From positions 32,001 to 96,000 of IMG/VR virus record IMGVR_UViG_3300021093_003900: 64,000 bases of DNA; one strand, written 5' to 3'. The position numbers were made by a program, and so were the translations under genes. Each line of letters starts with the position of its first letter. The stretch's first letter is position 1. Source of the stretch: a virus. The notes under the pieces were generated by a model. That model was not told the DNA's origin. It saw only the letters and a list, made by a program, of their open reading frames with translations, and searched no databases. Positions 30,517-33,814 of the stretch are shown here, piece by piece.

Positions 30517-31200
30517 TTAAATTCCTGTTGAACCAAACCCATTTTCACCTCGTTCCTTATCTTGTAAATTTTCTTGAAGTTGTAAATTAACTACAGATCC
30601 TACATAGACAGGATATAGTCCACATTGAGCGATTTTTTGTTGTTTTTTTATAACAATTGGGTCTGGTGTTGAGTTGTAAACAATCACTTTTATTTCACCA
30701 TTATAACCCGAGTCAATTGTTCCCGGACTGTTTAAAACGATCAATCCTTGATTGATAGCAAGACCACTTTTAGTTCTGACTTGTAATTCATTATGTGAAG
30801 GAATATCAAACTTCAACCCTGTCGGAATTAAAGCTCTCTGAAACCCATCTAATTTGTACTCAATTACCGAATGCAAATCGAAACAGGAGTCTGTTCCATA
30901 ATTATATTTGGGATCTACAGCATCAGGATGAATCTTGACGTAATTTAGTTTCATTCTTTGATCCATATTTGATTGATCAGATAATTCAGTCATAAAGTTT
31001 GAATTTTCTTCTGAAGAAAGAATTGCTATAAGGTTTTCTAGATCGAACCCGAGTTTTTGTGATAAATTTGACAACTCGTTTTCATCATCTTCTTTTGTAA
31101 ATTCTTGAGATAGATTTTTTAATTCTTCTTGAAGTTCAGACAATGTTTGATTTATCTCATAATCAGGATCGTCAAGTTTGTTTGTATTACTATTGTCCAT
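30517..31200 (-). CDS. dut: Trimeric dUTPase with an acidic N-terminal extension
   Basis: FDL, RTKSGLA, NSPGTIDSGYNGEI, KIAQ, RGENGFGSTG. Confidence 0.92.
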   Translation of the reverse strand: MDNSNTNKLDDPDYEINQTLSELQEELKNLSQEFTKEDDENELSNLSQKLGFDLENLIAILSSEENSNFMTELSDQSNMDQRMKLNYVKIHPDAVDPKYNYGTDSCFDLHSVIEYKLDGFQRALIPTGLKFDIPSHNELQVRTKSGLAINQGLIVLNSPGTIDSGYNGEIKVIVYNSTPDPIVIKKQQKIAQCGLYPVYVGSVVNLQLQENLQDKERGENGFGSTGI

Positions 31201-31901
31201 TATTTTAATTCTTTTAGTTTTTTTATTAAGTCAACTAATACTAAAACGTCCCTCTCACAATACTCAACAATCAAATTAAGTTGATTGTGTTCCCAGTATG
31301 CTTCGTGAACTCTATTACCCGTAATTTCACCTTCTTTAGATGATGGTACACCCATAGCTGAGCACATTAACTCCAAGGACGATAAACCAAAAGGATTACC
31401 AAATTTCCAGACATCCATAGTATCTATTGCTCTAATTTCCCAAGGTTTTGTTTCATAACTTGGTAGTAATGTTGAAGGTTTAATTCCGTTTATTACCATC
31501 CTTTTAAGTAAGTGAGGAATATCAAAATTTTTGACATTGTGACCACACAACCAAAAATCCGATTTTTGAACTTTATTGAATAAATGATTAATTTCAAATA
31601 GAGTTTGTTTTTCATCATGTCCTGAGATGGTTTGTTTGTGAACTTTTCCATCAGGTGTTACAAAAGCAAAACTAGCACAGACTATTTTTGAAAACTCGGG
31701 AACAAGTGCTGCTCGGTTTATAAACACTTGTTCTTTTGGTAATTCTTTATCTTCAGGAAATCTTTTCAAAAACCAGTCAAAATAGTTGTGAAATTGCTTA
31801 AACAACATTTCATTGTTCTTTTCAAGCTCTTCATAGTTTTTGAATAAACCTACAGTTTCAATGTCAAAAAAAAGGATTTTATTTATTGGTTGTGTAATCA
31901 T
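31200..31901 (-). CDS. PolB-type 3'-5' exonuclease (DnaQ-like)
   Basis: FDIET, GHNVKNFDIP, IDTM, YCERDV. Confidence 0.88.
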   Translation of the reverse strand: MITQPINKILFFDIETVGLFKNYEELEKNNEMLFKQFHNYFDWFLKRFPEDKELPKEQVFINRAALVPEFSKIVCASFAFVTPDGKVHKQTISGHDEKQTLFEINHLFNKVQKSDFWLCGHNVKNFDIPHLLKRMVINGIKPSTLLPSYETKPWEIRAIDTMDVWKFGNPFGLSSLELMCSAMGVPSSKEGEITGNRVHEAYWEHNQLNLIVEYCERDVLVLVDLIKKLKELK

Positions 31902-33153
31902 AATATGGATCTGTAAAATTCTGCTCTATCTTTTGTAACTTTTTCTAAACTATATTTTTCGTGGACAGTTTCATATAATCGTTCACCCAAGTCTTTGGCG
32001 AAGTTTGGATTTTGAATAAGTTTTTTAACATACTTAAACCAATCACCGTGATTTCTGTTTTCATCTACTAATAATGCGTTTCCGTTGGTAAATATACCAT
32101 TATCTAAGGCATGAGTCAAATCGATAGTATAAGGTCCGAGATTAGATGCAATCAAAGCTTTCTTGTAAAAACCAGCCTCAATTACTTTCAATTGAGATTT
32201 CATTCTATTGAAAATGTGATTCTTGATAGGTGCCAAAGATACATCAAATTTTGTATAATTTTTTGCGTATTGTTGAATCGGTCTTGTCCAAATTCTCTTA
32301 TAGAATTCGTGAGAAAATTGACTATCATCCTCCTCTTTAAATCTCATTAATAAATTATGATATTCAGGTGATATTAATTTATAATTGTCTGTGAATACTT
32401 GTTCATATTTGTACCACACAGTTTCATGTGGTTTAATATCTCGTTTTTTCTGTTCTCCAGTTTGTTGATTAATTTCAGTCACAGTACCTCGTATATCAAA
32501 CCCACAAAGATAAACTTCAGTTGTGCCTTTGTACTCGTGCATACGAGAAAAAATTGATTCAAGTATAGTAATGTCGTGTAAGTGAGATGAACCACCTAAC
32601 CATCCAAATCTTAACTTATCTGAAGGTTCTGTAACCGCATTAAATTGAGCCTCAGTTTTACTAATTGCATTAGGAAATACAACAGCGTTTTTATTATACT
32701 TTGTTATTTCCTGAGCAAAAATACTCGTTGTTGTCATCACATAATCACTAACTTTTAGATTTTCTATTATCTTTTCGTGAATTTTATTTGACACAACTAA
32801 GTCGTGAATAGGATGATCTTTTGTCGGTAACCAGTAGTCATCCAAGTCCATAACTGTCTTTACACCTAATTGACCAACCATTTTAATCAAATTGGCTGAG
32901 GTATCATAGTTTTGACCAATAGTTCTGTGGAAATGAACTATATCATATTTTCGCCAAAAATTGATATCGTTTATTTGGGGTTCATATTCAATATCAATAT
33001 GAAAGTCATTAGGATACATATTTTGTAAAAAAATATGTGGATCGATTGATCTGAATTTACCTTTAGTTAACCAACCCCCGTACGGTCAGATGGGACTACA
33101 AGAATCCTGATCTTTTCGCGACCATTTGGGGGTGGAATTGAATTTTGTTGCAT
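31898..33153 (-). CDS. GT-B glycosyltransferase with an interrupted reading frame (33153-33070 joined to 33058-31898)
   Basis: Main ORF has DLDDYW, GWLGGSSHLHD, FNRMKSQLKVIEAG but lacks the first beta-strand; the upstream segment MQQNSIPPPNGREKIRILVVPSDRTGVG stops at TAA, and the main frame reads KFRSIDPHIFLQNMYP from 11 nt further on. Confidence 0.75.
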
Positions 33154-33155
33154 AG

Positions 33156-33220
33156 TTAGAAATTATATTCTAAGAGTTTATTGTACTCGTAAAACGAATA
33201 ACTCTAGAATTATAATCTAA
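33156..33220 (-). promoter_or_regulatory. Long bulged hairpin in the 5' leader of the interrupted GT gene
   Basis: Arms TTAGATTATAATTCTAGAGTTATT and AATAAACTCTTAGAATATAATTTCTAA on the minus strand, ending 2 nt before the ATG. Confidence 0.6.
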
Positions 33221-33253
33221 AATACAATGATTTTCAAGGTAGAAATATAAATA

Positions 33254-33814
33254 TTACTTAATTTTTTTGATTTTTGTCACAACACCTTCAAATACGTGAC
33301 TTCCAACTCTGAAGGTTAGTGGTTGTTTTGTTGAAGAACTTTCTTCGTACAATAATCCTTTTTCTGATAACACTTCTTCTATTGTTTCTTTCAACATAGA
33401 TTTTAAAGTATTGTAATCAAAATTAGATTGAACCTTTTTGGGTTCTGCTTTTACATTTCCAGCTGGATCTGTTTTCATTAATCTAGTTGCCGCTTCGACT
33501 AATTCATTTGATAAAACAGATTGACTTTGTGATTGAGGTTGTTCTATCGGATGTTCCAACATCAATCTTTTTATTTCATCTGGTAGTTTAGAATTTTGAA
33601 TTCTCTGTGTCATTGGAACATTCGAGTTTTGTTGTGGAGCCTGTCTTTGTTCTTGTAAAAATTCTTGTGGAATGTTATAGTTTGCATTTACAGGTTCAAA
33701 CGATTGAACACTAGGCGATGAAATACTCATAGGTGAATTACCTCTTGGCATTTCAGTTTGTTTATCCATAATTTTTTTAGCTACTGCTAATTTTTGTAAT
33801 AAATCTTGATTCAT
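33254..33814 (-). CDS. Hypothetical protein
   Basis: 186-aa Gln-rich ORF; SKLPDEIKRLMLEHPI. Confidence 0.7.
   Translation of the reverse strand: MNQDLLQKLAVAKKIMDKQTEMPRGNSPMSISSPSVQSFEPVNANYNIPQEFLQEQRQAPQQNSNVPMTQRIQNSKLPDEIKRLMLEHPIEQPQSQSQSVLSNELVEAATRLMKTDPAGNVKAEPKKVQSNFDYNTLKSMLKETIEEVLSEKGLLYEESSSTKQPLTFRVGSHVFEGVVTKIKKIK

Follow-up and report, generated by a model that had tools for sequence, protein, structure and literature searches.

How does a viral glycosyltransferase gene keep a long and conserved reading frame when its N-terminal motif, the most conserved of the protein, is broken by a stop codon? This question is raised by a locus on the minus strand of a 64,000-nucleotide (nt) stretch of DNA, hereafter the window, which spans positions 32,001 to 96,000 of the IMG/VR virus record IMGVR_UViG_3300021093_003900, a 115-kb fragment from an uncultured virus. 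Public sequencing runs containing this stretch are labelled as lake water or freshwater sediment. At the locus, a short open reading frame (ORF1) finishes with a GGT codon and a TAA stop, and a second GGT lies in frame with the body of the glycosyltransferase (ORF2), at a hop distance of 11 nt from the first. We consider it likely that positions 33153-31898 encode a single glycosyltransferase of GT-B fold made by programmed translational bypassing, with the ribosome leaving the first GGT and resuming at the second. An initial annotation, made from the letters of the window, had proposed this hop over the TAA to a matched GGT, restoring the motif ...TGVG-KFRS..., and the proposal is supported both by uninterrupted homologs and by interrupted relatives.

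Programmed translational bypassing is among the rarest of decoding events, and in phages the only established case is T4 gene 60, with its homologs. The gene 60 cassette is still called unique in the latest survey (bioRxiv 10.1101/2022.08.31.505936), and the evidence for phage Hau3 is partial. A second, apparently independent family of bypasses linked to an endonuclease would show that this strategy evolved more than once; additionally, dozens of natural variants with graded hops and a conserved 5' hairpin would constitute a simple system for examining what drives a bypassing ribosome forward. In current annotation, such genes are called as truncated ORFs (P0058 and P0062, 366 amino acids, aa) or are read through as if they were intact.

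Layout of the interrupted gene and its predicted product

The landing GGT shares its frame with a 373-aa ORF starting at 33019, and this frame is open upstream to 33085; past the landing codon, it reads AAA TTC AGA from 33058. The downstream frame is offset by 11 nt, so that readthrough of the stop codon does not join both frames in the window. The bare motif GGTTAANNNNNGGT matches once in the window, compared with 0.53 matches expected, and 42 of 100 shuffled sequences contained at least one match. The motif alone is thus not significant, and the case rests on its position within the most conserved N-terminal motif and on its recurrence in relatives.

The downstream frame has ca. 7765 homologs, mostly of 403–405 aa. 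Their N-termini are continuous and conform to M(S/E/K)KI.VLVLPSD..GVGKFRS.DPH, also seen as PSD(R/T)TGVGKFRS(I/L/V)DPH; the initial annotation had asked whether homologs read TGVGKFR without a break, and they do. Thousands of them carry the uninterrupted sequence ...PSDRTGVGKFRS..., the same sequence that an 11-nt hop would produce. Indeed, continuing ORF1 with the codon that follows the second GGT yields ...RILVVPSDRTGVG-KFRSIDPH..., collinear with the uninterrupted homologs, in whose alignment G15, V16, G17 and K18 are invariant. The Lys-C junction peptide predicted from the hop is IRILVVPSDRTGVGK, whose final Lys is encoded only past the landing codon. Among the homologs, P0053 (443 aa, from NCBI) contains an internal duplication of a KNHIFNRVKSQLKVIEAGF...HSL block, which might be a chimeric assembly or a real duplication.

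The downstream frame matches the glycosyltransferase PHROG 7162 (E = 4e-45), and its match to Pfam Glyco_trans_1_4 is below threshold. In a structural model of the intact homolog P0009 (predicted local distance difference test, pLDDT, of 69), strand beta1 comprises residues 4–9, followed by a loop at residues 10–17 and by helix alpha1 from residue 18; the take-off Gly corresponds to the end of the beta1-alpha1 loop. Foldseek comparisons with this model retrieved BshA, MshA, PglA and GlgM (E of 5e-10 to 1e-7, template modelling scores of 0.5–0.6). As modelled, the enzyme is GT4-like and of GT-B fold, having the two Rossmann domains that define the fold, with beta1, a Gly-rich loop and alpha1.

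Gap, extension and hairpin in related loci

The same layout of Gly codon, stop, spacer and Gly codon is present in about 50 related contigs, with hops of 6, 11, 12, 14 and 15 nt; relatives with other matched-codon gaps at the same site, which the initial annotation had suggested searching for, thus exist. Pattern scans identified 8 viral and 19 metagenomic loci, plus 24 viral loci with a 6-nt hop. The 11–15-nt form reads GGT TAA, spacer, GGT AAA TTY in viral and metagenomic loci alike. All 28 loci with hops of 11–15 nt go from GGT to GGT, always with TAA after the take-off codon. The spacers are CTAAA, CCAAA, ATCAA, CAAAA and ACACA for 11-nt hops, CCAACA and CAAAAC for 12-nt hops, CAAAAAAA (N8) for the 14-nt hop and CAAAAAACA (N9) for the 15-nt hop. 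They are A- and C-rich, G is absent from every one of them, and every TAA has C or A as its next base, which is a weak termination context in Escherichia coli.

In the 6-nt class, found in 24 viral contigs, the stop alone stands between two Gly codons (GGY-TGA/TAA-GGN). Fourteen of these contigs have GGC TGA GGT, and the others show GGT followed by TAA or TGA and by GGA, GGC or GGT as the landing codon. The take-off codon and the landing codon are identical, or differ by a U/C wobble, in 18 of the 24, and the remaining six go from GGT to GGA, with two of the three bases matched (L113, L117, L124, L126, L130 and L132). In L132, moreover, the extension and the endonuclease (see below) have diverged much further, to 39% identity.

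Hops of 11 and 14 nt are out of frame, and those of 6, 12 and 15 nt stay in frame but include a stop; a hop is thus the one event that suits every length. A hop would produce GVGKFRS in every form, which accounts for the constant second Gly codon and for the stop never being replaced; likewise, spacers without G would keep the tRNA from landing too early, and a hop also explains the weak termination context after the stop. Scanning for 11-nt inserts without regard to the stop or to codon identity retrieved no copy lacking GGT or TAA. A second scan, anchored on the extension and hairpin described below and blind to the junction, gave the same 8 viral contigs and no healed or different junction. 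We did not find the element in cultured phages, for which blastn was empty and tblastn retrieved only relatives at ≤32% identity. Neither the window nor the 115-kb record contained tRNA genes; as the record is a fragment, a phage tRNA-Gly is neither invoked nor excluded. The junction pattern also gave an unrelated chance match, GGTTAAAACAAGGTAAG, at positions 2150-2172 of L088, within the open frame ...VGGWLKQGKRRNENV... of another phage protein.

All the gapped genes begin with an N-terminal extension of 12–14 residues. Among 78 viral loci, extension and stop plus gap were both present in 11 and both absent from 67, with zero exceptions, and the extension is also present in all 19 metagenomic loci and in all 24 loci with a 6-nt hop. 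Its codons supply both 5' strands of a hairpin, with an outer helix pairing 33136-33128 with 33079-33071 and an inner helix pairing 33124-33116 with 33090-33083; the outer 3' strand stops at the second base of the take-off codon. The pairing between CCACCCCC (33135-33128) and GGGGGTTGG (33079-33071) pointed out in the initial annotation is therefore present, as part of a longer hairpin that is recovered by RNAalifold and shows covariation.

The minimum-energy fold of the hairpin in the window has -25.7 kcal/mol (z = -2.1). With 17 distinct cassettes, RNAalifold produced a two-helix consensus identical to the window fold, and the same hairpin was the minimum-energy structure in 17/17 (-25 to -32 kcal/mol); the same region of uninterrupted genes folds with a mean of -10.9 kcal/mol. 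Paired cells amounted to 97.9% in these cassettes, versus 23–48% with the partner slid. Pair 55-110 is GC in nine sequences, CG in seven and GU in one, a swap that exchanges Pro and Arg in the extension opposite a synonymous change in a Gly codon. The 6-nt class has an equivalent hairpin, with UG, AU and GC at one position. The apical part is paired in most sequences, in shifting registers, and we claim no covariation there. The structure of the hairpin is well supported, and we infer that it would stimulate the hop.

Two other possible signs of constraint were set aside. A small hairpin after the landing codon was dropped as a candidate signal, being accounted for by amino acid conservation. 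Third-position diversity near the junction is 0.86 bits in cassettes versus 1.43 bits in intact genes, a difference that is not usable as evidence of RNA constraint because of the narrower ancestry of the cassettes.

Table 1. Features of the interrupted glycosyltransferase locus, in window coordinates
Feature	Position	Strand	Basis or remarks
ORF1, 28 codons, MQQNSIPPPNGREKIRILVVPSDRTGVG, closing GGT and then TAA	ATG at 33153	minus	Sequence reading
N-terminal extension, codons 1–14, MQQNSIPPPNGREK	33112..33153	minus	No counterpart in uninterrupted homologs; supplies hairpin 5' strands
Region resembling the native N-terminus, codons 15–28, IRILVVPSDRTGVG	33070..33111	minus	Strand beta1 and Gly-rich loop; homologs KI.(I/V)LV.PSD..GVG-KFRS
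Take-off codon GGT	33072-33070	minus	Last codon of ORF1
Coding gap, 8 nt	33062..33069	minus	Stop TAA (33069-33067) and spacer CTAAA (33066-33062)
Landing codon GGT (33061-33059) and resume codon AAA, Lys (33058-33056)	33056..33061	minus	Homology to uninterrupted locus L004 restarts at 33061
Glycosyltransferase body, 387 codons from landing codon, and stop	31898..33061	minus	PHROG, fold, homologs
Hairpin, 66 nt	33071..33136	minus	Minimum-energy fold, RNAalifold, pairing counts
Cassette leader, decayed 3' remnant of homing-endonuclease gene	33154..33253	minus	Alignment to L097, L085 and L110

A mobile cassette with a homing endonuclease

When the window is compared with the uninterrupted locus L004, homology breaks off at 33254, where the upstream gene has its stop codon, and picks up again precisely with the landing GGT. 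In most relatives, the interval from this upstream gene to the cassette is occupied by an ORF of 300–328 aa with a helix-turn-helix, a NUMOD3 module (33.9 bits, for a cut-off of 20.4) and matches to homing endonucleases in PHROG; it also has a below-threshold match to the Vsr-like REase_MTES_1575. This ORF overlaps the start of ORF1 by 29 nt, out of frame, and depending on the locus it is full-length, reduced to a 3' remnant or absent, having been lost in the window, L084 and L087. The leader of the window cassette aligns, with a 10-nt deletion, to the last ca. 85 nt of the ORF from L097, L085 and L110. As judged by its modules and its pattern of presence and absence, the ORF of the relatives is a free-standing homing endonuclease, of which the window holds only a remnant. 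The leader also contains a conserved ATAAACT motif, around 25 nt before the ATG. A 65-nt bulged hairpin at 33156-33220 sits in the decayed 3' remnant of the endonuclease and is perhaps a relic and not a regulatory element.

On a tree of 66 gene bodies, the cassette has a scattered distribution that calls for 12 gains or losses. At the same time, the divergence of the endonuclease and that of the body are correlated (Mantel r = 0.67, 0/2000 permutations), reaching amino acid distances of 54% and 38%, respectively, which indicates long co-inheritance as well as transfer. These comparisons delimit the cassette as a discrete module, with the landing codon as its end; in most relatives, it is fused to a NUMOD3/Vsr-like endonuclease gene. 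Locus L029 (positions 1-440; 3300032053_004392) contains a fragment of an endonuclease of this family upstream of a truly uninterrupted glycosyltransferase with a short N-terminus, without the bypass cassette.

Being part of a homing-endonuclease cassette is the more likely reason for the existence of the gap. By analogy with known systems, the gap probably disrupts the target of the endonuclease itself, which in its uninterrupted form would be ...GGTGTTGGTAAATTT.... Interrupting a target located in a conserved motif would protect the genomes bearing the element from self-cleavage, leaving the protein unchanged. In the window, the endonuclease is gone and the bypass cassette alone persists.

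Alternative explanations and related systems

The mobility of the cassette raises the possibility that the gene was simply inactivated by a selfish element, and that a dispensable glycosyltransferase was broken while its frame remains intact through the recency of the invasion. Homing elements can spread despite a cost to the host genome, the cassette does move between gene bodies, and the window body is 95% identical to that of an uninterrupted gene; yet, inactivation appears improbable from the conservation of the downstream frame. The initial annotation had named relaxed selection downstream as evidence against a hop, and what we found is purifying selection, the pairwise ratios of nonsynonymous to synonymous substitution rates (dN/dS) of ORF2 having their median at 0.17 and never exceeding 0.34. 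In a clade where all the members have the gap, dN/dS is 0.12–0.13 at dS around 1, and the 386–403 codons that follow the landing site are retained in every complete copy (more than 40). A recent invasion is also at odds with the extent of the co-divergence of endonuclease and body. Moreover, ORF1 with its stop, the Gly codons, a spacer free of G and the hairpin are all retained in lineages whose endonuclease is decayed or missing, and a dead gene would constrain none of them.

Slightly less credible is a mixture of recoding events, with a -1 frameshift for the 11- and 14-nt forms and readthrough for the 6-, 12- and 15-nt forms, adding two to five residues to the loop. Such a mixture would leave unexplained the constant second Gly codon, the stop that is never a sense codon and the G-free spacers, would make the length of the product vary inside the invariant GVGK, and needs two mechanisms for one homologous cassette. 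It is true that the in-frame forms would require readthrough only, and that the window has a run of five Gs just before the stop, with the -1 frame open from 33085. However, most relatives have an interrupted run (GGGCG, GGGTG), and a conserved slippery heptamer is missing. A -1 slip on this run, which the initial annotation kept as an alternative, is refuted by the broken runs and by the 6-, 12- and 15-nt gaps being in frame; no homolog contains WLTKG.

A two-piece enzyme, in which the 28-residue peptide and a separately initiated body assemble non-covalently, or the body works alone, seems to us quite improbable. There is precedent for reassembly among proteins split by endonucleases, namely gene 39/60 and NrdA (bioRxiv 10.1101/2022.08.31.505936), and the window offers an ATG 14 codons past the landing site, where a protein beginning MYPNDF could start. 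Homologs have no conserved start there, though. We found no conserved start after the landing site in any position, and the first in-frame start ranges from codon 10 to codon 214 (codon 214 in L085, 106 in L038 and 101 in L095), which speaks against independent initiation of the body. From the landing site up to any start, the codons show conservation at the protein level and, in addition, a strand plus loop of 28 residues would probably not form a stable subunit.

Removal of the gap at the level of nucleic acids, by RNA processing and religation or through a subpopulation of gap-less DNA, is very improbable. Contigs from four public runs, one of them from a metatranscriptome library, span 33056-33080 colinearly and free of indels, and thus retain the 11 nt. 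No gap-less form was reported among them, evidence that is weak because contigs drop, and can hide, rare variants. Runs X15 and X16 are labelled as RNA-Seq and are probably DNA; the X18 contig belongs to an RNA library, possibly with carried-over DNA, and counts only as no spliced form having been seen. We know of no mechanism for the precise excision of 3–12 nt, even if the hairpin adjoining the gap could act as a processing signal and large phages often encode RNA ligases. Lastly, an assembly or sequencing artefact, also considered in the initial annotation, is refuted by identical junctions in independent assemblies (L087/L096, L093 and L097) and runs, and by diverged versions in around 50 contigs.

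Two oddities appeared in the contigs of these runs. In run X6, DNA contigs end or begin with a 30-nt overlap (33054-33083) exactly at the junction, which suggests a fork in the assembly graph, with two or more gene bodies attached to one cassette within a single lake sample. In one X15 contig, 210 nt of the window (33044-33253) are replaced by 134 other letters; it derives from a co-occurring relative whose 5' region is different and presumably uninterrupted.

Several observations weigh against bypassing, or at least reduce the force of the evidence for it. All the support for the predicted bypass comes from sequence comparison; the RNA-library contig may itself come from carried-over DNA. In the six 6-nt contigs with GGT and GGA, a tRNA-Gly with a GCC anticodon would be mismatched at the wobble base on landing. 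The high identity of the window body with an uninterrupted gene means that its intact ORF2 could partly reflect too little time for decay, and some junctions, that of the window among them, are possibly recent recombinants. Covariation in the hairpin is confined to a few positions and may stem from a small number of independent events, the majority of pairs being invariant. The amino acid conservation of the extension is inseparable from the constraint on the hairpin, because the extension codons double as its 5' strand, so constraints on the nascent peptide and on the RNA cannot be told apart. Finally, the 115-kb record lacks tRNA genes.

Bypassing nevertheless remains our preferred explanation, and its usual attributes are present: codons readable by the same tRNA, a stop in the A site, a collinear product and a 5' mRNA structure. 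The ribosome would pause when its P site holds GGU paired with peptidyl-tRNA-Gly and its A site holds UAA, and the C or A after UAA would make termination poor. The tRNA would then unpair from the mRNA, which would slide, possibly pulled by the 3' strand of the hairpin zipping onto the 5' strand waiting at the ribosome exit. Without any earlier landing in the G-free spacer, the tRNA would pair again at the next GGU, and decoding would restart at AAA. More tentatively, and with some doubt on our part, the cassette (extension, hairpin and Gly-stop-spacer-Gly) might be a portable and self-contained 'translational intron', giving homing endonucleases a third route, beside introns and inteins, by which a conserved coding target is interrupted and the protein left undamaged, and in which the hop is driven mainly by the zipping of the hairpin 3' strand. 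If so, the series of 6, 11, 12, 14 and 15 nt would calibrate the reach of pairing by the exiting mRNA. Pairing of the exiting mRNA as the driver of bypassing is a model already proposed for gene 60 (bioRxiv 10.1101/2024.12.09.627546).

The closest parallel is the gene 60/MobA architecture, with homologs in topoisomerase II large-subunit genes (Manning & Atkins, bioRxiv 10.1101/2022.08.31.505936). Both have a take-off Gly directly before the stop and a landing Gly, a new N-terminal extension and then a short stretch that is homologous to the native sequence it replaces, an endonuclease ORF that overlaps the extension out of frame, and an insert that ends at the landing codon; in both, the bypass outlasts the endonuclease, which is lost progressively, and the gap has no premature landing triplets. 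Protection from self-cleavage by the gap has been proposed there too. This likeness is an analogy and not membership, and we detected no sequence homology to MobA or gene 60. The host gene of the latter encodes the topoisomerase II large subunit, with the insertion at Toprim Asp45/Gly46, whereas here it lies at the 5' end of a GT-B gene, which is not split in two. Likewise, MobA is of the HNH type, unlike the NUMOD3 plus Vsr-like endonuclease of the relatives, and the gene 60 hop covers ca. 50 nt, instead of 6–15 nt. Gene 60 also relies on a stem-loop at take-off and, 6 nt ahead of the landing site, on a mini Shine-Dalgarno, and the gaps of 3–12 nt leave room for neither; conversely, the 5' hairpin is not conserved among gene 60 homologs and is strongly conserved here. 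The element would hence work like gene 60, and lies outside that family in view of its host gene, its type of endonuclease and the length and signals of its gap.

In the terminase gene of phage Hau3, a short insert (10-nt blocks) is bypassed, as evidenced by a junction peptide detected by mass spectrometry in E. coli (PMC10732093), which indicates that hops of around 10 nt are feasible in this bacterium. Both cases involve hops of that size in a phage gene and a proposed stimulatory 5' stem-loop. The Hau3 insert differs in the use of a rare sense codon, UUA, proposed to sense the tRNA supply of the host, as well as in the lack of an endonuclease, its few copies and the gene affected.

Stop-hopping in E. 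coli, reportedly described by Weiss et al. in 1987 and O'Connor et al. in 1989, is said to be inefficient and to have been observed with engineered constructs. In it, the peptidyl-tRNA leaves a codon beside a stop and pairs again with a matching codon a few nt further downstream, and the 6-nt GGC-UGA-GGU class has the same layout; in contrast, the element described here is natural and conserved, with a dedicated hairpin and extension. Mobile coding insertions skipped by the ribosome between matched or nearly matched codons are also known as byp elements in Magnusiomyces capitatus mitochondria (Lang et al. 2014). These are reported to be of 27–55 nt and mitochondrial, with hairpins within the gap and without an endonuclease. 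The literature searched contained no paper on bypassing in a glycosyltransferase or on a second bypass family linked to an endonuclease.

The initial annotation also interpreted the gap as a regulatory switch for a glycan gene run of roughly 16 kb, a role that finds no support in our data. In the window, the stop of the glycosyltransferase gene overlaps by 4 nt the start of an ORF similar to DEDD-type 3'-5' exonucleases (31200-31901), which in turn abuts a dUTPase-like ORF (30517-31200), so that the three genes are tightly coupled.

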